A DNA stretch of 9,483 bases from a virus (Duplodnaviria; Heunggongvirae; Uroviricota; Caudoviricetes): positions 1 to 9,483 of IMG/VR virus record IMGVR_UViG_2778261058_000006. The stretch is one strand, 5' to 3'. The notes below the pieces were generated by a model, which was not told the origin of the DNA, did not search any database, and was given only the letters and a program-made list of their open reading frames with translations. Below are positions 1 through 9,483 of this stretch, in pieces. Position 1 is the stretch's first letter, and every line of letters starts with the position of its first letter. The translations under genes and the position numbers were made by a program.

Positions 1-68
1 CACGACCAGGCTTAAGGACCACCAGCCCGAGTTCCGGTACCGGAACAGGTCGAAGCAATACCCGCACG

Positions 69-347
69 TTACCTCCAGATCCGTTGCTGGAATGTGCGGG
101 ACGGACGCGGTGGGCGTTCAGAGTAAGGCAGTCTGACTGAGATGATCCAGTGTCGGAAGTCGAGGCTGAGGTCTTTCTGAAACTCGTAACCACGTCTGCG
201 GTAGTTCTGAATCAGCCATTCGGCCTGTTCTTCAGTGCATGGACCATGCTGGAACCAGTCAGATTTGAATGCATGAGAACGCCGCCCGCGCCTGCTGGCA
301 AGGACGGCGAGATTATCAGAATTGTGTGATCTGGAATTTTGCGCCAT
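69..347 (-). CDS. Hypothetical prophage protein (92 aa); C-terminal third is low-complexity and may reflect a frameshifted or truncated gene
   Basis: ATG at 347..345 preceded by a GGAGAAAG SD-like motif. N-terminal two thirds look protein-like. Stop TAA at 71..69. The two other minus-strand frames stay open from about position 100 to the window edge. Confidence 0.35.
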   Translation of the reverse strand: MAQNSRSHNSDNLAVLASRRGRRSHAFKSDWFQHGPCTEEQAEWLIQNYRRRGYEFQKDLSLDFRHWIISVRLPYSERPPRPSRTFQQRIWR

Positions 348-413
348 CGGCTTTCTCCGGTGGCACAGTGTTACTCAGCAGGGGTTCGGCCCTGCGCTGA
401 ATTGTAGATGAAT

Positions 414-674
414 TCACTCATCTTCAAAAGCAGAAAAACCAGCCTTAAGCCCAGCTTCTTTCAGAGACTGCAATGATGTGACAAATTCATTTTCACGCAA
501 AATAAAACCATCCGTCACCAGTCCATCCACAAAGTAAATTAACGCCGCCCCACTCTTCCTTTGTTGAGACTGTAAACATTTAATACGGCAGTGGCTGACA
601 ATAGCGCCATTCTCAACGCGCACAGTATAGAGGCCATCTTCACTAAAAATTTCAACCAATTCTTCGATTTTCAT
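414..674 (-). CDS. Hypothetical small prophage protein (86 aa)
   Basis: ATG at 674..672 with a GGAAGGA SD about 9 nt upstream (the ORF-track start at 677 is TTG). Clean ORF downstream of the hok terminator. It sits where rem lies in K-12 Qin, but identity was not verified. Confidence 0.5.
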   Translation of the reverse strand: MKIEELVEIFSEDGLYTVRVENGAIVSHCRIKCLQSQQRKSGAALIYFVDGLVTDGFILRENEFVTSLQSLKEAGLKAGFSAFEDE

Positions 675-863
675 CAACAGAATCCTTCCAGATAAATAGC
701 ACTCCCCTGCTCGGGGTCCATCCCTCTTCTCCCTGCGCGCTACTTAAGAGCCTCGATTCTAGCCGTGAAGACATACCGATCAACAGCAATAAGCCACCTG
801 AATAACAGAATCAGCCAGCCACATCAGTACAACCAGATGCATCATGCTCACCGAAAATAAACA

Positions 864-887
864 ACAAAAAACCCGCCGAAGCGGGTT
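864..887 (-). terminator. Rho-independent terminator downstream of the hok-like gene
   Basis: On the minus strand: 7-bp GC-rich stem AACCCGC/GCGGGTT with TTCG loop, followed by a U-run (complement of the A6 run at 866-871). Confidence 0.6.
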
Positions 888-955
888 AAGTGCGGGTGCG
901 TTGAGGATGCCTGACACATCAGAGGTGGCGAGGGATTTCTCCCCCGCCGGGTCTC

Positions 956-1111
956 TTACTCCTCAGGTTCGTAAGCTGTGAAGACAGCGACCTCCGTCTG
1001 GCCGGTTCGGATTCGTACCTCGCAGAGGTCTTTCCTCGTTACCAGTGCCGTCACTATGACGGTTAAACAGATGACGATCAGGGCGATTAACATCGCCTTT
1101 TGCTGCTTCAT
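956..1111 (-). CDS. hokD: Hok/Gef-family type I toxin (51 aa, single-TM membrane peptide)
   Basis: Translation MKQQKAMLIALIVICLTVIVTALVTRKDLCEVRIRTGQTEVAVFTAYEPEE matches my recollection of E. coli HokD/RelF and is close to HokC/Gef. AAGGAG SD 9 nt upstream of ATG 1111..1109. In-frame upstream GTG at 1138 gives a Mok-like 9-aa extension (MPKGKEKQA). Confidence 0.85.
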   Translation of the reverse strand: MKQQKAMLIALIVICLTVIVTALVTRKDLCEVRIRTGQTEVAVFTAYEPEE

Positions 1112-1380
1112 AGCCTGCTTCTCCTTGCCTTTCGGCACGTAAGAGGCTAATCTTCAGTTGTCGAGACATAAGACTGGCCTCACTTCGATTTATAGTCGGG
1201 TGGGGCTTTTCTCTATCTGCCTTTGGTGGCATGCCCGAGACAGATAGCCTCAAGCACCCGCAGCAATTCTACTTAACTCTCCTTTTCCCGCAAACCGTTT
1301 TTATCCCCAACGGCAATTCGAATACACTACCAGCGCCACCGCCAGTGCAATTCCTACCGTTGTGAATGCTTCAGGCCAGG

Positions 1381-1947
1381 TCATCGTAAAATATCCTCCG
1401 CGCTTATCAGTCCGTTTCGCTTCAGGTAGACCATCGCCTTCTCCGGTAATTTGCAGTCCGGCTTCGCTTTCCTCAATTGGCTAACCAGTTGTTTAATCAG
1501 CATTGTTAATTCCCGTACCTGAACGTCCCTTTTGGTATCCTCATTGGTGAGGATACCATCGTCTTTCCCCTGAAGCATGGCGGCGCAGCAGGCGTTCCAT
1601 GAAATTTCCTGAAGGGAACGACGAATCTGTGTGCTGCATATACTCCTCCCTGACTCCTGGCTGTTAAACCATGTTTCAAATTCCGGCACTACCGTCGCTG
1701 GCGGAGCAGCGTATAGCGGCACGTATATTTCCGGTTCCTTGTCTGCTCCTGGTTGCCCTTCCAGTGAGAATGTCTTTCCGGTAAATCGATTCATATAAAG
1801 CATTGGCTCTGCTTCCAGTGATGCCAGTGCGATACGAAACACATTGGCAAGCAGGCTGTCTGAAGATTGGTTATCGTGCGCCGGGTCGCTCAGGAAACCA
1901 GTGATGAATGATTTAATCTCCGCGTTTTCTCTGGTAATAGTGGTCAT
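1381..1947 (-). CDS. Hypothetical prophage protein (188 aa)
   Basis: ATG 1947..1945 preceded by AGGAGA SD, which lies in the last codons of the upstream gene (stop 1951..1949). Long ORF on the operon strand. Confidence 0.6.
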   Translation of the reverse strand: MTTITRENAEIKSFITGFLSDPAHDNQSSDSLLANVFRIALASLEAEPMLYMNRFTGKTFSLEGQPGADKEPEIYVPLYAAPPATVVPEFETWFNSQESGRSICSTQIRRSLQEISWNACCAAMLQGKDDGILTNEDTKRDVQVRELTMLIKQLVSQLRKAKPDCKLPEKAMVYLKRNGLISAEDILR

Positions 1948-1948
1948 A

Positions 1949-2167
1949 TCAGTTCTCCTTATACGGATTAATTTTATTGTGCAGTGTGTTGAACAACGCC
2001 CATACCACGTCGTTATACAATTCAATAACTGGCTCAATTATTTTCCCGATTGCCCAGACAAAAATTAGCGGGGATATCGGTATCATCAACACGATAAACA
2101 GAATGAGAAACAAAAATTCTGTCGCTCTACTTTTTCGCGGATATTCTTTTCTGAATAATGTAGGCAC
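1949..2167 (-). CDS. Small putative membrane protein (about 72 aa, one predicted TM helix), AT-rich
   Basis: GTG 2167..2165 sits 6 nt after an AAGGAG SD and 1 nt after the stop of the upstream gene. Hydrophobic stretch FLFLILFIVLMIPISPLIFVWAIG. The ORF-track start at 2188 is a TTG inside the upstream gene. Confidence 0.4.
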   Translation of the reverse strand: MPTLFRKEYPRKSRATEFLFLILFIVLMIPISPLIFVWAIGKIIEPVIELYNDVVWALFNTLHNKINPYKEN

Positions 2168-2168
2168 A

Positions 2169-2528
2169 TCACTCTCCTTTGATGCCAATGTTTACAGCCT
2201 GGCAAGCCTCTTTGAGCACCCAGTCAACAGCGTCTTTCCATGCTCCGGTTTCGACTGGCGGATTTTCACGCTTAACCTGTTCATAGAAGCGCACTGCTTT
2301 AATCAATCCTTCTGGTGTCAGTGGCACAGGCGGGGCAGTGAATAACGCCTGAATTTCATAGCTCGGCCTGTCGTTGCAATCCTCTTTTGTCGGTACATAT
2401 TTCCAGTCACCAACCCACGACTCCCCCTGAGAGTCCGTAACGCCTTTTTTCACGTAGCGATATCGCCATGCAACTGGTTTTGCCTGCCCTGCCGTTTCAT
2501 GTCCTTCCTGATAATTAATCTCGCTCAT
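2169..2528 (-). CDS. Hypothetical prophage protein (119 aa)
   Basis: ATG 2528..2526 overlaps the stop of the upstream 58-aa ORF (ATGA). Clean ORF on the operon strand. Confidence 0.6.
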   Translation of the reverse strand: MSEINYQEGHETAGQAKPVAWRYRYVKKGVTDSQGESWVGDWKYVPTKEDCNDRPSYEIQALFTAPPVPLTPEGLIKAVRFYEQVKRENPPVETGAWKDAVDWVLKEACQAVNIGIKGE

Positions 2529-2701
2529 TCATCGCCCCACTCATCACAATATGCTTCGACCGGAGTTTTTCCTGCTTCGTAGTCATCACGCCATGCTTCA
2601 GCATCAGCGGCACTTCCACCGCGTAACTCTGCATAGTCCATTAACAGTTCATGCCATTCTTCAAAACTGACGTTGTATTTAGTTGAACCAAAATCAGCCA
2701 T
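2525..2701 (-). CDS. Small acidic hypothetical protein (58 aa), below the ORF-track length cutoff
   Basis: Hand translation gives MADFGSTKYNVSFEEWHELLMDYAELRGGSAADAEAWRDDYEAGKTPVEAYCDEWGDE. GAGGAAG SD about 9 nt upstream. Start overlaps the upstream stop by 8 nt and its stop overlaps the next ATG (ATGA), filling an otherwise unexplained gap. Confidence 0.4.
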   Translation of the reverse strand: MADFGSTKYNVSFEEWHELLMDYAELRGGSAADAEAWRDDYEAGKTPVEAYCDEWGDE

Positions 2702-2876
2702 TTTGTTCTTCCTCTTCGTCTTTTATTTCGTGATATGAGTAATTGCAGCAGTTAAAGAAAATTTCTTTTGCTTCGTCATGAATTTCATCAGGTGTTGCGT
2801 CATCGTCCACTTCGAATACATCCTCAAAATCTCCACCAGCTATTCCAGTTTCAATAATTATTTTGAACTTTCGCAT
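2694..2876 (-). CDS. Small acidic hypothetical protein (60 aa)
   Basis: ATG 2876..2874 (internal Met of ORF 2694..2957). A GC hairpin lies just upstream; the SD is weak (GGCGG). Confidence 0.45.
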   Translation of the reverse strand: MRKFKIIIETGIAGGDFEDVFEVDDDATPDEIHDEAKEIFFNCCNYSYHEIKDEEEEQNG

Positions 2877-3004
2877 TTCACTACCGCCCTTTCGGGCGGC
2901 CTCCGGATGATTTGAGGGTGCAGGAATCCCTCCGGTTAAGGATTTAATAAAAACCACTTCTGATTTAAATTTTCAGTGTTTTGTTGCCAGGTGATTTATC
3001 GCCT

Positions 3005-3316
3005 TTACGCTTCAGCCTTATTTCGCAACCAGACACAAACCGGGCCATCTTCGGTGTCATGTATTGAACCAATAAACCATCCATCGCCCTCTGGTCGTTC
3101 CGGTTTCCAGGAGGCAATATCGGGACCATCTGCATCAAGATTAAAATCATCTTCATCCATAGTTCTGATGGTCCATTGAAGATTATTTTCCTCCATCCAT
3201 GCGTTAAACTCTTCCGTTGAAATATGTTCTCTACCATCACAGAATTTTTCATATTCAGGATGCGTCCAGCAGCCATATTCATCACGTACTACTGGTATTT
3301 CTTTAATTTCATTCAT
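3005..3316 (-). CDS. Hypothetical prophage protein (103 aa)
   Basis: ATG 3316..3314 with GGGAGAA SD; overlaps the upstream gene stop by 8 nt. Confidence 0.55.
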   Translation of the reverse strand: MNEIKEIPVVRDEYGCWTHPEYEKFCDGREHISTEEFNAWMEENNLQWTIRTMDEDDFNLDADGPDIASWKPERPEGDGWFIGSIHDTEDGPVCVWLRNKAEA

Positions 3317-3563
3317 TTCTGTTCTCCCACGTTTTCAGACTTTCACCACAGAACGGACAAAATGAAACCCGCACTGGTGATTTAGAAAATTCACCGGAAC
3401 GCAACATCACCAAATCAGGGCCGCGAGTTAAACTCTCATTCCAGATTTTGTATATCAGCAGACCTTTTCGCGTCGTGTATTCAGCATCATGCTCAAGGGA
3501 TTTTGCCAGTGCTGCACATGGTTCTATCTTGTTGCCATTAATTTGGCATTTTGGCTCACTCAC
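3309..3563 (-). CDS. Hypothetical small protein (84 aa) with paired Cys motifs (possible zinc ribbon)
   Basis: GTG 3563..3561 with AAGGAGG SD 6 nt upstream; GTGA overlap with the upstream stop. Cys at C-x9-C near the N-terminus and C-P-F-C near the C-terminus. Confidence 0.55.
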   Translation of the reverse strand: MSEPKCQINGNKIEPCAALAKSLEHDAEYTTRKGLLIYKIWNESLTRGPDLVMLRSGEFSKSPVRVSFCPFCGESLKTWENRNE

Positions 3564-4198
3564 TGTTTACCTCCTTTTCGAAGCTGTTCGGCGATATCTT
3601 CGAGAACGCCATCAGAGAATGAGCGGTCAAAATCGCCTTCCGGCGCATTAGCCATAAACTCAGTAGAGGTAAGAATCATCCGGGCAATATCCGCGGCGTT
3701 CTTCGCAGTATCATCAATAAAACCAGCTTCCCAGGCAGCCAGCATTCTGTTCGCCACAAAGTAAGCGCCCTCCTTGCGTGCTTCAGTCTTCACTTCAGCC
3801 AAGAAAGCGTCGGTGGCTGGGGTTTGCGGCATCCTTCCGTCTATTGCGCAGATATACGCATCAGATAGTTCATCCTGCTCGCCATCAAACACGTAGCAAC
3901 TCTGTACGATAAATTTATTCAGCCCCGCATTCTCCGCCGCAAGCGCAGCAAGATTAGTCTCCAGCTCTGCAATGCGTTTGCTTTGGGCTTCCCGTTCATC
4001 CAACAGTGCCAGCACGGTAGCCGGATTGGCTGCTGCTATGAATCGCTTATTGGCGCGATTATCTGGTCCTGAGCATGATGCTATGTAGTAATTTGCGTTC
4101 AGTCCGGCATCAGCAATTAACCCATAATCATCAGAACACCATTCGCCAGGGGTTGCATTTTCTGCCGCCATTCGCAGTGCCTGGTAATTAATGTTGCT
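3560..4198 (-). CDS. Ea22/Ead-like prophage protein (about 212 aa)
   Basis: GTG 4198..4196 with AGGAGG SD 6 nt upstream. N-terminal motif [20 protein letters not shown] is typical of enterobacterial Ea22-like proteins (recalled family knowledge). Overlaps the upstream gene stop by 11 nt. Confidence 0.6.
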
Positions 4199-4931
4199 CA
4201 CTGGTTTCCTCCTGGCAAAGCTGGGCGACAATATCGCGATATTTATTCAGCTCCCGCAGCGCGGCACAGACTCGCTCCCATTTCCGGATATCACTTTTCG
4301 CCCGACGCAGTTCGCGGTTTGCCTGTCGCAGCGATGGCAGAACCAGATTATCCACTCGCTTCTCAAGCGGCTGCACAATGTCCGCCACAGTTTCTGTTTT
4401 AATATCTTCCTGTGTTGCAGCTTCCTGTACTGGTAACGCAACACATGCAGGCTGAGGAAAGGCTTTACCATCAGTTTCCGCTACCGATGCCGCTTTCGGC
4501 TCTGCTGGTAAATTACCGCCCGGCATGCAGTAACGAAATTTACCGTTCTGATTAACACGAATCAGACGACCTTTGCTGATTGCCATTGCCAGCGTTGAAG
4601 CCACTTTGCGGGATGTTGTACCGAACAGCGTAGCCAGTTCATCCGCCGTTTGTGGTCCGCGTTGTTCAATCGTCGCGGTTAAATCGTACTCTGAGATTTT
4701 CGCCACTGTCGCCGTGGTGGTTTCTTCCGGCTGTTCTTCTGGCGCTGGCTGTTCCTGCTGAACGTTGTTATCAGCCACACGCCAGGTGTATACGCTTTTA
4801 TCAACGAAGCCAGCCTTTTTCAGTTCCCACAGCTCGTTCAGTACTTCTTCACGACTGATATCAAGTCGCGCAGCCAGCTCTACCGACGTGGCTTTTCCCA
4901 TCGCTTTCAGTGCGTCAAAAACAGTCTCCAT
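4188..4931 (-). CDS. Hypothetical prophage protein (247 aa) with two winged-helix-like segments
   Basis: ATG 4931..4929 with GGAGG SD about 9 nt upstream (the ORF-track start at 4997 is upstream of this RBS). Function unknown. Confidence 0.6.
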
Positions 4932-4965
4932 TAAAATTTCCTCCCGGTAAAAATTACTTCTCAAC

Positions 4966-5631
4966 TCAAACAAACCCAGCCGCTTTCCGGCGTTCATATT
5001 CCTGTTTCAGTAACTCAATTGGCGTTGGCCCCGACGGGCGTTTGGGTGCCGCCAGTTGTCGCCGGACTGGCGGAACGCTCAGGCCGTTACTAACATGCTT
5101 TGCCCATTTCGTCAGCTGCCGTTCTGCAAGCTGTTTTAATTCCCCTTCGGTCATCTGACGCTCAATCCCCTTATCACGCATCTCGAGGCAAATGTGATAC
5201 AGCACAGGCTGAGACCACGGGTACTTATCACTTCCGTCGTATCGCCAGGACTCATTGCGCCAGCGGCGGTACTCCTCCATCACAGCATCCACCGTCAGAC
5301 CAAATGGATTTGCCCCACTCTCCGAAATCAGCGCCACAAACTCAGCCAGGTCCGGAGGCCATGTTTCACCCGCCCGGCAGCGGTCCATGCACTGGCGGCA
5401 GACCAGCCGGATTTGCTGCTCAGTCATCGCGCCAATCTGTGCAATCCAGAGCTTCGAAGGTGCGGCCCCGTTCTTCTGGGTCCAGCGGTTCGAATAAACC
5501 TCCCCCATGAGTTCCCACAGCTTCCACGCCGTTTCCGTCGCTGATAAATCCGTTTTCACGTTCCCACTGCTCACGTGCTGCCCGAATTTCCTGAACTGCC
5601 CGTGATGCGGTGCCGCCTGGTGCTGCTGCAT
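4966..5631 (-). CDS. Lambda P-like replication protein (DnaB helicase loader)
   Basis: Recalled lambda P shares a YPW-containing segment and a similar C-terminus with this ORF. ATG 5631..5629 has a GGGGGTGA SD-like motif. Start is uncertain; alternatives are 5508 and 5427. Confidence 0.65.
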
Positions 5632-6460
5632 GGCTCACCCCCTTGCTGACTGGTTTAACCTGCGCCCTGACGTGATGTACGTGACGGGCGAATTTCTGCT
5701 CCCACTGAACCTGCGTGAAAACTTTCCCCTCCGCTGCCCAGTAGTCCCGGAAGGCGGCAAGTTCAGCTGGTGTAAATTCCGGCTCCGGCAGAGCCATCCC
5801 CCACAACGCAGCCCGTCGTCGAAAATCCCGTGACGGATGCCAGCTATCGGTCATCGGAAATTTTCCGATGGGCTCGCTCAGGCCATCCAGGAATACAGGG
5901 GATGTTGCCTGTAACGACAAAACTTCCTGCTCACTGGTCGGAGCACTCTCGTGTGCGTTATGTGTGGGGTTTAGATCTTTGGGTTCCTTTGGGTTCCGTG
6001 ATCCGTTTTTGGGTGTCTTTGATGGAAAATTTGGGTGTCTTTGGTTATTTTCCATGCAGAAAAGAGTTCCGTTTTTGGGGCTGTTTTGTGCTGAAACATA
6101 ACCGTTTTTGGTACTGTTTTTATTAACAGCACCAATTTTACCCACCTTTAAAGACTCCCGTTTTTGGGTGTATTCAGGCTCGGCAACACTTTCTTCTACA
6201 CCGATAAGTCGGTACACCACGATTTGCTTTGTTCGGCCTTTTCTCTCACCGGTATCAATAATTAACCCAATCTCCATCAGGTGTCGTAAGCTGTCCTGCA
6301 CAGTCTTTTTGTTCAGTTCCGTTACTTCTGCCAGTGCAGATACAGACGGGTATGCGCACAAATCGGCACCGCACATATCAGCAAGCCAGGTCAATACTGA
6401 CTTACTGGATGAACTGCCGGTTTTCACCTTTTTAGCCCATCGTAGTGCATCGATACTCAT
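5420..6460 (-). CDS. Phage replication initiator (O-like): N-terminal HTH, iteron-encoded linker, DnaT-like C-terminal domain
   Basis: Domain-like layout by eye. Iteron repeats lie inside the coding sequence, as in lambda O. Start is uncertain: ATG 6460, ATG 6523 or TTG 6535. Confidence 0.7.
   Translation of the reverse strand: MSIDALRWAKKVKTGSSSSKSVLTWLADMCGADLCAYPSVSALAEVTELNKKTVQDSLRHLMEIGLIIDTGERKGRTKQIVVYRLIGVEESVAEPEYTQKRESLKVGKIGAVNKNSTKNGYVSAQNSPKNGTLFCMENNQRHPNFPSKTPKNGSRNPKEPKDLNPTHNAHESAPTSEQEVLSLQATSPVFLDGLSEPIGKFPMTDSWHPSRDFRRRAALWGMALPEPEFTPAELAAFRDYWAAEGKVFTQVQWEQKFARHVHHVRAQVKPVSKGVSHAAAPGGTASRAVQEIRAAREQWERENGFISDGNGVEAVGTHGGGLFEPLDPEERGRTFEALDCTDWRDD
5978..6171. repeat. Iteron cluster (putative replication origin) inside the O-like gene
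   Basis: CCGTTTTTGG(G) at 6003, 6069, 6102 and 6159. TTTGGGTGTCTTTG at 6008 and 6031. Tandem TTTGGGTTCC at 5978 and 5988. Followed by a moderately AT-rich stretch at 6111-6150. Confidence 0.55.
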
Positions 6461-6983
6461 ACGAACCCCAGACAGATATTTGTTTATCTGCAAAGTAATG
6501 TTGGTATTGCTGACGATACGCATGCTTGAAAGCAATAGCTTTTTCTATAAGCTCGTCAGTCTCACGTTCCACAACAGCTGGATCCGCAAAAAGCAGCCCG
6601 GACTCCACCACATCGCCATATTCTTTGTTTAACCCGGCGATCATGTACGTAATGCTTTTTCCGTCAGTAATTTCACAATACAACCTGAAATCGCTGATCC
6701 GGATAGCCTCCATAATTGCCGGAATCAGCGCCGTGAATTTTTCCCGCTTATCCCTGGTGTCGATAGCTTTCCAGCGTTCAAATATTTTCACCCGGTTAAC
6801 GCCCAGTGCCCGTTGATCAACCGCGCCATCATCAAACGTGACGCGTTGAACATCAATGTTCGGGCGTTCTTTCAGAGCCCAGAATGCTTCCGTGATTAAT
6901 ATCGTCGCCTGCTCCTGTGTCATTCCTGGTCGGCATACCCAGGAATCCAGAGCCTCACAAGCCTGTTCAGGGGTGATTTTCAT
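6432..6983 (-). CDS. Hypothetical protein in the cII position of the early operon (183 aa); possible regulatory protein
   Basis: ATG 6983..6981 overlaps the 3' end of the DicC-like gene by 17 nt; its own 3' end overlaps the O-like gene. Weak SD; an alternative start is ATG 6923. Confidence 0.5.
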   Translation of the reverse strand: MKITPEQACEALDSWVCRPGMTQEQATILITEAFWALKERPNIDVQRVTFDDGAVDQRALGVNRVKIFERWKAIDTRDKREKFTALIPAIMEAIRISDFRLYCEITDGKSITYMIAGLNKEYGDVVESGLLFADPAVVERETDELIEKAIAFKHAYRQQYQHYFADKQISVWGSYEYRCTTMG

Positions 6984-7195
6984 TGTTCAACCGCCCCGCA
7001 CGCTTTGCCTTACGATATTCGTCATAAACTTTGGGATCGTACTGAAGCTCCCCGCCGGATGCCTCCTGTAGACGCATCGCGCGACCTTCAGGAACCAGTT
7101 CCCCCCATGCAGCAATGCTTGCCAGCCTAACTCCTGCGGCATTGGCAATGCTTTGTTTTGCTGCCAAAAAACGCTATAGCATCAATTTTCAACAT
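6967..7195 (-). CDS. dicC: DicC-like (Cro-analogue) repressor with an apparent +1 frameshift near the 5' end; possible pseudogene
   Basis: Strong AAGGAG SD plus ATG 7195..7193 opens a frame encoding MLKIDAIAFFGSKTKHCQCRRS, then stops. The conserved body (...AAGVRLAS...GRAMRLQEASGGELQYDPKVYDEYRKAKRAGRLNNENHP) is in the next frame, which has a stop at 7176..7174 and only a TTG at 7167 without SD. Confidence 0.6.
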
Positions 7196-7271
7196 ATCGA
7201 GCTCCTTAGATTTTCCTAAGGAAACTAGATCGTAGAGAAACCTAAGTCAAGAAAAATTAGAATTCCCTAAT
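7196..7271. promoter_or_regulatory. Divergent promoter/operator region between the DicC-like and DicA-like genes
   Basis: Perfect palindrome TCCTTAG-N6-CTAAGGA at 7203-7222, overlapping the DicC-like SD. Palindrome ATTAG-N6-CTAAT at 7256-7271, abutting the DicA-like ATG. Extra CCTAAG at 7241-7246. Confidence 0.5.
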
Positions 7272-7679
7272 ATGAAAAACGAAACCTTCGGTGCTCGCCT
7301 CTTACATAGGCGTAAAAAATTAAAACTGTCTCAGGCCGCATTAGGTAAGCTGGTCAAAGTGGCTCACGTAACAATTTCTCAATGGGAAAGAGATGAAACA
7401 CAGCCGGCGGGGAAAAGATTATTCGCACTGAGCCAAGCGCTTCAGTGCTCACCGACTTGGCTTCTTTTTGGGGATGAAGATAAACAACCAGGCGAACCGA
7501 TCCCGGATAATCAGCCAGCCATTCTGACAGAAGATCAAAAAGAGTTACTTCAACTGTTCGACGCACTGCCTGAGTCAGAGCAAAAAGCCCTGTTGTCAGA
7601 GATGCGTGCTCGAGTTGAAAATTTCAACAAACTTTTTGAAGAACTACTCAAAGCTCGCAAAAGAAGCGCAAACAAATAA
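7272..7679 (+). CDS. dicA: DicA-like HTH (Xre/cI-type) prophage repressor, 135 aa
   Basis: N-terminal HTH (LSQAALGKLVKVAHVTISQWER) and a C-terminus resembling recalled DicA. Divergent from the Cro analogue. No SD upstream, so possibly a leaderless-type start. Confidence 0.85.
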   Translation: MKNETFGARLLHRRKKLKLSQAALGKLVKVAHVTISQWERDETQPAGKRLFALSQALQCSPTWLLFGDEDKQPGEPIPDNQPAILTEDQKELLQLFDALPESEQKALLSEMRARVENFNKLFEELLKARKRSANK

Positions 7680-7744
7680 TCCCCTTTTTTCTCCACACCC
7701 TGTAATAAAAAGCACAAACTTTCAAACACTTGTGTTTTTTACAT

Positions 7745-7810
7745 CAAAAAACTTAGGTTTTTCTACATAAAAACCTTGACCACCCACCTTAGGTTATTCT
7801 AAATTTCATT
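7745..7810 (+). promoter_or_regulatory. Putative DicA-controlled promoter/operator for the ydfA-B-C operon
   Basis: Direct repeats CTTAGGTTTTTCTACA (7752-7767) and CTTAGGTTATTCTAAA (7788-7803) flank a TTGACC -35-like hexamer (7776-7781). They share a CTTAGnTTnTTC core with the operator palindrome at 7203-7222. The -10 element is not cleanly identifiable. Confidence 0.4.
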
Positions 7811-7881
7811 CATCAAGACACCGCACGGTGTTCTCAGCAAACAGTTCCGCCACCCCGGCGTTAAGGGGAAATGAGGTCAAC

Positions 7882-8037
7882 ATGGATACTATCGATCTTG
7901 GCAACAACGAATCTCTGGTGTGCGGCGTGTTCCCCAACCAGGACGGTACGTTCACCGCGATGACATATACCAAAAGCAAAACGTTTAAAACCGAAAATGG
8001 TGCCCGTCGCTGGCTGGAAAGAAACTCAGGTGAGTGA
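7882..8037 (+). CDS. ydfA: YdfA-like small prophage protein (51 aa)
   Basis: ATG 7882; MDTIDLGNNESLV... matches recollection of Qin YdfA. Position and size fit the Qin gene order. Confidence 0.7.
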   Translation: MDTIDLGNNESLVCGVFPNQDGTFTAMTYTKSKTFKTENGARRWLERNSGE

Positions 8038-8038
8038 T

Positions 8039-8167
8039 ATGGATTTCGACGCAATCATGAAAAAGGCTTACGAAGAATACTTCGAAGGCCTTGCTGAAGG
8101 CGAAGAAGCTCTCAGCTTCAGTGAGTTTAAACAGACGCTTTCCAGTCCGGCAAAATCTAACGGCTGA
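8039..8167 (+). CDS. ydfB: YdfB-like small prophage protein (42 aa), absent from the ORF track
   Basis: ATG 8039, 1 nt after the ydfA-like stop. Hand translation MDFDAIMKKAYEEYFEGLAEGEEALSFSEFKQTLSSPAKSNG; stop TGA 8165-8167. Confidence 0.6.
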   Translation: MDFDAIMKKAYEEYFEGLAEGEEALSFSEFKQTLSSPAKSNG

Positions 8168-8196
8168 TAGGCGAAGCAGCACCGCGAGGAATCAGT

Positions 8197-8415
8197 ATGC
8201 AGAAACGAGAACCCGTCATCATCGCGCCAGACTATACCGATGATGAACTTTATGAGTGGATGCGCCAGAAAATTAATGCAGCGCAGGACCTGAAATGGGC
8301 CAATGAAGCCAGGGCTAAGCAGGCTGAAAATCTGTCCGCTCTGGAGCAGGATATCACCAGGCTGGAAAAAGCGGCGGCATTAAGCATTGCCAGAATGATT
8401 ACATACCCACGTTAA
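8197..8415 (+). CDS. ydfC: YdfC-like small prophage protein (72 aa)
   Basis: GAGGAA SD then ATG 8197. Size and position fit the Qin gene order. Confidence 0.7.
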   Translation: MQKREPVIIAPDYTDDELYEWMRQKINAAQDLKWANEARAKQAENLSALEQDITRLEKAAALSIARMITYPR

Positions 8416-8437
8416 TAGCTAACCAACGAGGCTAATA

Positions 8438-9043
8438 ATGGAATTTAAAGATTTACCAAAAGAAATCCAGACAATTGCTGCAACGACTCTCGGTGATAGC
8501 CTGGTGAAAATTGACCCCGCATGCACCAAAAAAGAAACCATCGATAATATGGTTCGTAATGTGCGCAATGCTTTTTCTGGGCTATATGGTTCTGATAATC
8601 AAAAGCAGGAAAGCGATGTTAATGAACGGGTAATTTCTGTTTGCCTGAATGGCCATGTTCTTTCATCAATCAAAACAGAAACAGCGACAGCCATCGATTA
8701 CCTTTGCATTGTACAGAGCCTTTTTGATGCCCTGTTTCGTTCAGTGAATTTAAAAAATGATGCAAATCTGCGAGGGCGCACAATAGCACATTCATATGCA
8801 CATACTTTAGGCTCTGTGGATGTTAAAAATAATACCCTGCAAGTTACTCTCGAACATTCACCGCAAGAGTTGAAAACGGAAAAATACGATGCAAATAAAA
8901 ATAATAACGATAAACCTGATTTGTTTATTATCAGCTCAAAGCTACTGGAAGTCATGAAGAGCGAGCTTGAGAAACACGACATCAAGCCCACTCCTGTATA
9001 TTTACGATGGATAATGAAGATTATTGATGCTTCTCTGCCATAA
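8438..9043 (+). CDS. Hypothetical protein (201 aa), AT-rich accessory gene of unknown function
   Basis: ACGAGG SD about 8 nt upstream of ATG 8438, 22 nt after the ydfC-like stop. Uninterrupted ORF to TAA 9041-9043. Codon usage is visibly AT-rich (many AAA/AAT/GAT), roughly 35-40% GC by eye. No match to anything I recognise. Confidence 0.6.
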   Translation: MEFKDLPKEIQTIAATTLGDSLVKIDPACTKKETIDNMVRNVRNAFSGLYGSDNQKQESDVNERVISVCLNGHVLSSIKTETATAIDYLCIVQSLFDALFRSVNLKNDANLRGRTIAHSYAHTLGSVDVKNNTLQVTLEHSPQELKTEKYDANKNNNDKPDLFIISSKLLEVMKSELEKHDIKPTPVYLRWIMKIIDASLP

Positions 9044-9212
9044 GCTTCTTATCCAGGAATGCTTCAAATTTATCGTAAATGACGTCAATCTCCCCCATTT
9101 GCTCGGTAGCAATAGAAATGGCGTGAGATGGTGAAATGGGCACCTGGCAATGGGCGTTAAAGGTTTCCACAGCCAGGCGCATAAGGAACATTACTTTTTC
9201 TTCTTGTGTCAT
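9021..9212 (-). CDS. Hypothetical small protein (63 aa), convergent with and overlapping the 201-aa gene
   Basis: ATG 9212..9210 with GGAGGG SD about 6 nt upstream (ORF-track start 9221 is a GTG inside the SD). Stop at 9023..9021, overlapping the 3' end of the 201-aa gene by 23 bp. Confidence 0.5.
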   Translation of the reverse strand: MTQEEKVMFLMRLAVETFNAHCQVPISPSHAISIATEQMGEIDVIYDKFEAFLDKKLMAEKHQ

Positions 9213-9348
9213 AAATTTCACCCTCCTGAGGGTTGGTAATTAAGGAGTTCTCCACGGGTCAGGTGGAGTGCGTGCGCCGGACACGGGTGAGCATCCGGCA
9301 CTGGCAGTTTACTGAAAGGATATATCCCTGAAAAGTCAGGGCATAACA

Positions 9349-9418
9349 CGGAAGCGCACAGCGAAGTCATTCCTCCCTTTGTTGTGTACCACTGACATCT
9401 TCGTCTGTGCGCTTCCGG
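9349..9418. repeat. Long imperfect inverted repeat (potential RNA hairpin) upstream of the 63-aa gene
   Basis: Left arm CGGAAGCGCACAGCGAAG (9349-9366) pairs with right arm CTTCGTCTGTGCGCTTCCGG (9399-9418), one bulge, about 32-nt loop. A second small hairpin CCCTGA-AAAG-TCAGGG lies at 9326-9341. Confidence 0.4.
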
Positions 9419-9483
9419 TTGTGGCACTCCGCGAAATGGCGCGGCGGTAAGTATGGCGAGGCTATCCTTTCCTCGAGATAACA

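Follow-up and report, generated by a model that had tools for sequence, protein, structure and literature searches.

A hypervariable slot between ydfC and dicF in lambdoid prophages, with ORF201 as one of its alleles

The lambdoid phages P22 and lambda carry in their early-left region the SieB/Esc/sas locus, which has the immunity repressor or N on one side and a kil-type division inhibitor on the other. SieB is a membrane protein of about 190 amino acids (aa), and Esc is an in-frame internal product of the same gene. The locus represents an exclusion-plus-self-escape system with antisense RNA control, made up of a factor expressed by the prophage and an antidote with which phage get round it (PMC12197685). 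We analysed a stretch of 9,483 nucleotides (nt) of a Caudoviricetes virus (IMG/VR record IMGVR_UViG_2778261058_000006, positions 1 to 9,483; in the following the window), in which an open reading frame (ORF) of 201 aa, ORF201 (8438..9043, plus strand), converges with a gene for a 63-aa protein (9021..9212, minus strand). This pair shares with SieB/Esc/sas the genomic neighbourhood and the presence of two components, with antisense RNA being involved in the latter system, but there is no sequence similarity, and here two separate, putatively soluble proteins are encoded on opposite strands. By analogy, SieB/Esc/sas may be regarded as the nearest functional precedent for the ORF201 pair. We found that ORF201 is one allele of a hypervariable slot located between ydfC and dicF.

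Also close to ORF201 are DicB, DicF and Kil, which fulfil non-essential, host-directed early functions (PMC5069750). ORF201 shares with these genes the operon and the presumed repressor control, but shows no similarity to DicB or KilR and lies upstream of them, not in their place. An earlier reading of the window from its letters alone (the sequence-only reading) had put ORF201 in the dicF/dicB slot, and this turned out to be wrong. In seven relatives with the 201-aa gene (Escherichia coli L001, L002 and L018-L020, Salmonella L016, Escherichia albertii L021), dicB, or KilR in Salmonella, lies 0.55-0.75 kilobases downstream of ORF201, where DUF1482/YdfD, an exonuclease, xis and int are also encoded, and the cassette containing ORF201 is found upstream of the dicF leader. 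Rfam located DicF downstream of the slot in O157:H7 and K-12, and the window, which is a complete contig, ends about 110 nt short of the expected dicF start. In ompW-integrated prophages with ORF201 (L002 8095-8160; L001) the DicF position is held by a diverged hairpin-terminator, GGCATCAGTTTCATTGCTGGCTGATGTC CGCCCTTTTT, which scores below the Rfam DicF threshold (76.7 bits for the O157 and K-12 copies) and may be a DicF variant with a different seed.

Pairwise alignment with K-12 (NC_000913) showed that a segment of about 795 base pairs (~8434..9228, junctions approximate to a few bases) comprising ORF201 and the small gene is absent from K-12 Qin. On one side it adjoins ydfC and on the other the long untranslated region that precedes dicF, a region described before (PMC5069750). 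We scanned IMG/VR for the core of the conserved leader that precedes the small gene, and the resulting 120 stretches together with the loci already examined gave 124 usable places. Among these 124 loci with the leader, 80 were occupied by an ORF whose product begins with MEFKDLP or a similar sequence, 35 were empty as in K-12, and 9 were in other states. Thirteen unrelated families of small genes (39-99 aa) were found behind the leader, and the plus-strand body switched along with the small gene, so that the cassette swapping downstream of ydfC for which the sequence-only reading had suggested a comparison was indeed found, with many different plus-strand bodies. The 3' ends of the two genes abut or overlap by 0-49 nt, the partner ORFs nearly always begin with MEFKDLP, and the ATG of this N-terminal domain was located 22 nt past the ydfC stop in 34 of 34 loci with ydfC. 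A comparison with O157:H7 and an enterotoxigenic E. coli strain showed that the variable DNA stops exactly at the start codon of the minus-strand gene, while its ribosome-binding site and about 100 nt upstream are conserved. The G+C content (GC) of the cassettes was 0.382 on average vs 0.481 for ydfC, and low GC is therefore a property of the slot and not specific to the ORF201 allele.

The slot is composed of two facing expression platforms that flank an AT-rich, convergent gene pair swapped as a unit. The left platform consists of the ydfC stop, a 22-nt spacer with GAGG and an N domain of about 52 aa, and the right platform, on the other strand, of a structured leader of about 100 nt, a GGAGG site and an ATG. 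The literature that we searched contained no paper on genes located between ydfC and dicF and no mention of the RefSeq (WP_) protein accessions, and we did not find the dual-platform, convergent-pair organisation of this gap described in it. As is generally known of accessory-gene hot spots such as those of P2 and P4 and the lambdoid "moron" sites, conserved flanks surround AT-rich, swappable cassettes with an empty state and many orphan alleles, and the slot resembles them in all of these features. In the slot, however, the flanks are facing expression platforms, every cassette is a convergent pair overlapping at the 3' ends, and none of the cassettes matches a known defence system. Polymorphic toxin-immunity loci such as CdiA-CT/CdiI and the colicin and pyocin cassettes also combine a conserved N-terminal part and a variable C-terminal part with a co-varying small neighbour gene, as we observed here. 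Unlike in those loci, neither a secretion apparatus or signal nor a recognisable toxin domain was seen in the slot, the small gene is convergent instead of downstream and co-directional, and the slot proteins, with 100-210 aa, would be cytoplasmic early proteins.

Screening of the cassette proteins gave few hints on function, and those scanned, the small protein included, are orphans with regard to Pfam, NCBIfam, PADLOC and PDB sequence profiles. In PADLOC-DB v2 there was no match for ORF201 and only a noise-level match of the small protein to Csn2 (E 0.015), and no significant match was obtained for four alternative plus-strand proteins and 10 of 12 alternative small genes. No toxin domain was found in 11 plus-strand cassette proteins scanned. 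One IMG/VR locus encodes a small protein of 94 aa (MAKFTVRIELRD...) that reached 21.2 bits with Pfam GhoS (cut-off 21), a type V antitoxin endoribonuclease; the plus-strand partner at this locus is a truncated ORF of 48 aa.

ORF201 is a real protein-coding gene under purifying selection. It begins with an ATG after a gap of 22 nt to the stop of the ydfC-like gene, which ends at 8415, and 6 nt upstream of the ATG is a GAGG ribosome-binding site (8428-8431). Its GC of 0.388 is lower than that of ydfA, ydfB and ydfC (0.494, 0.480 and 0.493) and of the right flank (0.55). A stop-free stretch of the length of ORF201 was obtained in only 2 of 1000 dinucleotide shuffles of 8300-9300 (six frames). Seven alleles with 86-96% nucleotide identity were all intact, and the ratio of nonsynonymous to synonymous polymorphism (pN/pS) among them was 0.37 in the annotated frame, the lowest of six (other five 0.47-0.96), with values of 0.36, 0.40 and 0.37 for the N, M and C modules described below. 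We further found 19 protein clusters with 78-100% identity to ORF201, all of 201 aa or nearly so, from E. coli, E. albertii and Salmonella, with the ORF intact in all cases examined. The sequence-only reading thus held for the ORF itself with its spacing and ribosome-binding site, for the low GC and for the reality of the convergent 63-aa gene, and the intactness in relatives which it had named as a check was confirmed. The 201-aa form is rare, being present in 8 of 5426 complete E. coli genomes, and part of the ORF201 DNA occurs in 677 of the 5426, mostly as a 135-aa allele (O157:H7 and others). The predicted protein has 22.6 kDa, an isoelectric point of 6.2 and a grand average of hydropathy (GRAVY) of -0.36. 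By inspection, as distinct from formal transmembrane or signal-peptide prediction, no hydrophobic stretch was evident in the sequences of ORF201 and the small protein.

In RefSeq, the Prokaryotic Genome Annotation Pipeline (PGAP) labels ORF201 a pseudogene "missing C-terminus" (L001 6643-7041; L002 7001-7399). Because the ORF is intact in L001 and L002, this label is an annotation artefact, and it apparently stems from the 135-aa reference allele. An ORF antisense to ORF201 (8698-8991, minus strand, 97 aa; in L002 7162-7554, minus strand, 130 aa) was also considered and rejected as a gene. It is a shadow of the sense frame, since it is rich in Ser, Phe and Leu and antisense pN/pS (0.47-0.96) is above that of the sense frame.

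ORF201 turned out to be a mosaic of three modules, each of which is already represented in PHROGs of unknown function. The N module (aa 1-52, 8438..8593, plus strand) is a two-helix domain that starts with MEFKDLP and ends with AF.GLY, has invariant or near-invariant columns across all cassette alleles and is common to proteins with many unrelated bodies. A profile search against 1.84 billion representative proteins gave 76 matches, nearly all via the N domain alone, and the unrelated bodies in the profile may have made the search less sensitive to M and C. The N domain also occurs by itself, as a protein of 50-70 aa. The M module (aa 53-130, 8594..8827, plus strand; phrog_1363, phrog_23433) is common to the 135-aa allele of O157:H7 and other E. 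coli. Aa 1-130 of ORF201 correspond to positions 1-138 of the 139 positions of phrog_1363 (E 2.5e-41), and the C-terminal 70 aa lie outside this profile and match phrog_15476 and phrog_2982. Following a low-complexity linker (aa 131-153), the C module covers aa ~154-201 (DLFIISSKLLEVMKSELEKHDIKPTPVYLRWIMKIIDASLP; 8897..9040, plus strand, from the match coordinates of the hidden Markov model (HMM)). Its homologues were found in EPP-1, SfII, Shiga toxin (Stx)-type phages and one metagenome contig, and a word-indexed search with the C-module profile returned two proteins only. Recombination breakpoints in ORF201 fall after aa ~52, ~58/115 and ~128. An internal duplication of M and C, for which there was a weak BLAST alignment, was rejected by hhalign (probability 0.1%).

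No Pfam family matched ORF201 at E<=1, which excludes a match to DicB (PF05358) or to the SieB family, and neither ORF201 nor its modules had a match in NCBIfam, PADLOC or PDB sequence profiles. The sequence-only reading had described the gene as without resemblance to DicB or any known family, and the homology searches it had proposed, which gave no characterised family, agree with this. All cluster members carry the name "hypothetical protein" at their source, and ORF201 is thus already present in databases, as a hypothetical protein and in PHROGs of unknown function. The proposal of an undescribed accessory system was therefore borne out in so far as ORF201 is an uncharacterised gene in a swapping locus, but not as an isolated orphan. 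One further protein, P0111 (149 aa), carries a YdfC-like N-terminal half fused to a MEFKDLP-type domain in one polypeptide, which hints at YdfC and the N domain working together or, equally, at the loss of a stop codon.

The convergent small gene (MTQEEKVMFLMRLAV...IYDKFEAFLDKKL) belongs to phrog_2605 (4e-22) and to a family of 14 clusters. Its 3' end overlaps ORF201 by 23 nt. The ATG preceded by the GGAGG site gives a product of 63 aa and an upstream GTG one of 66 aa. An AlphaFold model of the small protein showed a two-helix hairpin with a predicted local distance difference test score (pLDDT) of 75, for which Foldseek found no match in PDB or BFVD; its GRAVY was -0.11. Relatives with 39-90% identity, which vary in length in frame (63-69 aa), were found in EPP-1, SfII, N-type Stx-like prophages, E. 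albertii and a metagenome contig, and tblastn gave matches in EPP-1, SfII and Stx1c phages. Substitutions among close relatives were too few for pN/pS of the small gene to be informative.

HMMs of the C module and of the small protein matched the same 21 of 145 loci, where the two were always adjacent and convergent and never apart, and the partner was present whichever member had served to find the locus. In these loci the C module is found in very different contexts with the small gene alongside: by itself (57 aa in L024, 68 aa in SfII), after an unrelated N part (118-126 aa, N-type Stx-like phages), after a portion of M in EPP-1 (121 aa, which align with aa 82-201 of the window protein) and, in the window, after N and M. 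The C module and the 63-aa gene are thus kept together across E. coli, E. albertii, Salmonella, SfII (Shigella) and EPP-1 (Edwardsiella), with the sequence upstream being exchanged. Breakpoints have hit the plus-strand gene elsewhere and have always spared the junction of the module with the small gene, so that the two may be viewed as a functional pair. From these sequence comparisons we give about even credence to the C module and the 63-aa protein being a cognate, probably physically interacting pair.

Decay of the small gene was observed in two lineages. It is frameshifted in L001 (7290-7418, P0178) next to an intact 201-aa gene, and this 42-aa allele is found on 37 contigs and is therefore a circulating variant and not a sequencing error. 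In the Stx phage 75/02 (L015) the small gene is truncated and the plus-strand gene intact. An intact small gene beside a decayed plus-strand gene was not seen among the loci compared. This asymmetry fits a small protein that is dispensable or harmful to the phage, together with a protective C module, better than it fits an essential antitoxin.

The gene content of the window is that of a lambdoid immunity and replication region. On the plus strand a DicA-like repressor of 135 aa (7272..7679; Pfam HTH_3 7.8e-14; 62% identity to K-12 DicA over 131 aa) is followed by ydfA-like (DUF1391, Pfam 6.5e-29), ydfB-like and ydfC genes (7882..8415; phrog_751, phrog_2061, phrog_1744), with YdfC 99% identical to that of K-12, and then by ORF201, in agreement with the repressor neighbour and the ydfA/B/C-like genes named before. 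The minus strand encodes Cro/DicC-like, YdaT-like, DnaT/O-like and lambda-P-like replication genes, DUF1627, Ead/Ea22 and hok/sok. The latter is a type I toxin-antitoxin locus at 956-1259 (minus strand) with a Hok/Gef ORF at 956-1138 (Pfam HOK_GEF, 2e-23) and a sok RNA at 1106-1259 (Rfam RF01794, 120 bits), and L002 carries this module as well. Between the repressor gene and ydfA there is a further variable spot (L003 821-1488, L018 1507-2171, L007 2681-3152, L021 4109-4590); it holds HigB with a helix-turn-helix antitoxin or PaaA2/ParE, depending on the prophage, and is empty in the window.

Upstream of ydfA we identified a promoter-like site, TTGACC-18-TAAATT (7776-7805, plus strand), which lies between two direct operator-like repeats (feature 7752..7805). 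The operator-like motif CTTAGGTT(T/A)TTCTA occurs in five copies: three inverted ones at 7206-7270, in the dicA/dicC intergenic region, and two direct ones at 7752-7768 and 7788-7804, bracketing the promoter-like site. These repeats are probably binding sites of the heteroimmune DicA homologue. Because the same repeats stand in the dicA/dicC intergenic region, the ydfA promoter-like site appears to be controlled by the DicA-type repressor. On the plus strand between 7805 and 9043 we detected neither a terminator-like site nor a usable promoter, and it is therefore a reasonable inference that ORF201 is co-transcribed as part of the early operon downstream of this repressor, as the sequence-only reading had proposed. 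If so, ORF201 is probably silent in the lysogen, which fits an early-lytic role better than prophage-expressed exclusion, and the convergent 63-aa gene is the candidate for expression in the lysogen. Morons are autonomous prophage transcription units (Juhala et al. 2000, cited in PMC4104026). The earlier assignment of ORF201 to this class stood with regard to its composition, which is unlike that of its neighbours (GC 0.388 vs 0.48-0.49 and 0.55), but not with regard to a promoter and terminator of its own, neither of which was detected in the plus-strand interval named above, and ORF201 rather reads as a gene of the repressed operon. Among the roles suggested for it, namely exclusion, abortive infection or anti-defence, no specific function found support.

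A conserved leader (9213..9322, minus strand) with the ribosome-binding site AGGAGGG (9227-9221) precedes the small gene, as seen in the upstream sequences of 13 loci and in 56 sequence variants surveyed. It stands before every alternative small gene, with five unrelated small genes in the first loci examined alone. K-12 has kept the leader except for the AGGAGGG site, which is inside the segment absent there (junction near 9228). Two conserved hairpins were predicted in the leader, with a different second hairpin in one lineage. On the plus strand, the long untranslated region ahead of dicF begins here. The right flank as a whole (9213-9483, both strands; L002 7776-8120) is GC-rich, hairpin-forming and conserved from K-12 Qin to N-type Stx-like phages. 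It contains the conserved pairings CCGGA...TCCGG and CTCCAC...GTGGAG, as well as CCCTGA-CTTT-TCAGGG with the compensatory variants CTCTGA/TCAGAG. On the minus strand a CUCC...GGAG pairing, with one compensatory CCCC...GGGG variant, could mask the ribosome-binding site of the small gene. The structure may serve either the dicF precursor on the plus strand or the leader of the small gene on the minus strand. No known RNA family was found by Rfam in 8300-9483. The anti-small-RNAs AgvB and AsxR, considered on account of the right-flank motif CACAACAA, were rejected, as they map to the PR' region.

Together these observations suggest how the ORF201 pair might work. In the repressed prophage, the small gene would be expressed from its own leader, and ORF201 would be made only upon lifting of the DicA-type repressor, when convergent transcription from the induced operon would damp the small gene. 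Such a reciprocal expression of ORF201 and the small gene, suggested by their convergent orientation, is possible and is put forward here with caution. On the lysogen side the small protein would interfere with incoming phages, and on the induction side the C module, carried on a conserved early protein, would protect the development of the phage itself. The slot would then owe its diversity to allele-specific recognition. That the pair follows a logic like that of SieB/Esc in P22 and lambda is an analogy which we regard as doubtful on present grounds. Nevertheless the combination of a slot allele, a cognate pair, reciprocal expression and SieB/Esc-like logic is tentatively our best explanation overall, and the ORF201 pair is a reasonable candidate for a phage-conflict module.

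Several points weigh against this explanation. The small protein is, according to its model, a soluble helical hairpin, unlike SieB, which is a membrane protein, and the AlphaFold2 model of ORF201 (30 homologues) had a pLDDT of 41.8 and was unusable. We found no consensus sigma-70 promoter for the small gene; the promoter candidate is a conserved -10-like TAAACT with a weak -35, 5 nt before the first hairpin, and the -10-like hexamer varies to TAAAAT and TAAGCT in two diverged contexts. Conservation of the leader may serve the plus-strand RNA, because the leader is also within the dicF precursor. Co-inheritance of two overlapping genes with a total of about 300 nt can be explained by linkage alone. 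The decay asymmetry (two cases vs none) is weak, because the loci are few and phylogenetically non-independent. No known defence, toxin or anti-defence model matched the cassette proteins scanned.

Similar weight must be given to an explanation in which ORF201 acts alone, as an early-lytic accessory protein for host takeover or anti-defence, with the small gene as an unrelated passenger in a recombination hot spot; this is equally no better than a tentative reading. The docking site of the N domain would then be a conserved component of the phage or the host, with different host factors being addressed by the variable bodies. In line with this, the operon is devoted to host takeover, with DicF, DicB, YdfD/Kil and the exonuclease encoded downstream in relatives, the N domain is conserved across many bodies and also occurs by itself, the YdfC-N-domain fusion P0111 exists, and the plus-strand gene survives decay of the small gene. 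It is hard to reconcile with a mere passenger, however, that the C module and the small gene were never apart in 21 loci despite frequent breakpoints elsewhere, and that the 3' overlap has been kept in all 13 unrelated cassettes.

Alternatively, the two genes might be coupled at the RNA level, with the minus-strand transcript being mainly an antisense RNA and the small ORF incidental, which we consider improbable. Such an RNA would either insulate the toxic dicF/dicB genes from leaky read-through in the lysogen or silence incoming early operons with the same cassette, in the manner of STnc6030. This RNA, reported from the Salmonella prophage BTP1, is antisense to a lytic tailspike gene and excludes close relatives without blocking induction (PMC12197685). 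As the genes are convergent with no terminator-like site between them, any minus-strand transcript derived from the leader would extend into ORF201 in antisense orientation. Furthermore, conservation and structure, with some compensatory changes, are seen in the leader, and there are precedents in STnc6030 and sas (PMC12197685) and in the RNase III processing of the dicBF transcript (PMC5069750). STnc6030 is non-coding and has a late-gene target, though, whereas the minus-strand unit of the slot, whose expression is putative, has a conserved protein-coding ORF. The small protein is conserved with 39-54% identity and in-frame length variation in EPP-1, SfII and Stx-type phages with diverged DNA, and in all 13 alternative cassettes an ORF has been retained that uses, in register, the same ribosome-binding site and ATG, which argues against an incidental ORF. 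A dual role of the transcript as RNA and as message is possible.

A classical toxin-antitoxin system, with ORF201 or its C module as toxin and the 63-aa protein as antitoxin, appears very unlikely. The two-gene unit with a small helical partner, the one alternative small gene at the Pfam GhoS threshold and the abundance of HigB, ParE/PaaA2 and hok/sok modules in these prophages would be compatible with it. But the genes are convergent and not co-transcribed, and no toxin or antitoxin domain was found in either protein in Pfam, NCBIfam and PADLOC, so that the pair shows neither of these two features of type II systems. In addition, two lineages have a frameshifted or truncated version of the presumed antitoxin next to an intact presumed toxin, and the latter would be under a repressed promoter.

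It is also very unlikely that only the N domain of about 52 aa is functional and the body of 150 aa a chance in-frame extension from an inserted small-gene cassette: although the domain occurs by itself in forms of 50-70 aa, one of which has 52 aa and a convergent 61-aa gene as its neighbour, and PGAP calls the gene a C-terminally incomplete pseudogene, that flag is an artefact on an intact ORF, 150 stop-free codons in DNA of 39% GC are very unlikely by chance, pN/pS of M and C is as low as that of the N domain, and conservation of the C module at the protein level extends to distant phages and to forms encoded by a gene of their own.

Returning to the cognate-pair explanation, a wider and rather unlikely extension of it would be that the gap between ydfC and dicF in prophages of the DicA/Qin type and in related lambdoid ones, Stx-converting phages among them, is an undescribed polymorphic conflict locus. 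The N domain would then provide the platform on which interchangeable effector or antidote bodies are expressed and fused, and each body would have its cognate small protein, made from the opposite-strand leader. This would provide allele-specific exclusion and escape among related phages with at least 13 specificities, one of which would be ORF201 with the 63-aa gene.

The results are of moderate interest and offer a lead that can be tested directly, but they do not amount to a discovery. If there is only linkage between the two genes, ORF201 would be one more orphan accessory gene of the ordinary kind within a mosaic region. In any case RefSeq flags the intact gene as a pseudogene, so that ORF201 will be overlooked in pangenome and defence-island screens from which pseudogenes are excluded. 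If the pair is indeed a cognate module, the slot would offer, as a compact natural library, at least about a dozen small protein pairs that are orthogonal to each other. Such pairs would govern competition among lambdoid prophages, including the Stx-converting phages of pathogenic E. coli, Shigella and Salmonella. The promoter-proximal genes of the dicBF operon are still uncharacterised (PMC5069750), and a cognate module in the slot would provide a function for part of this operon.

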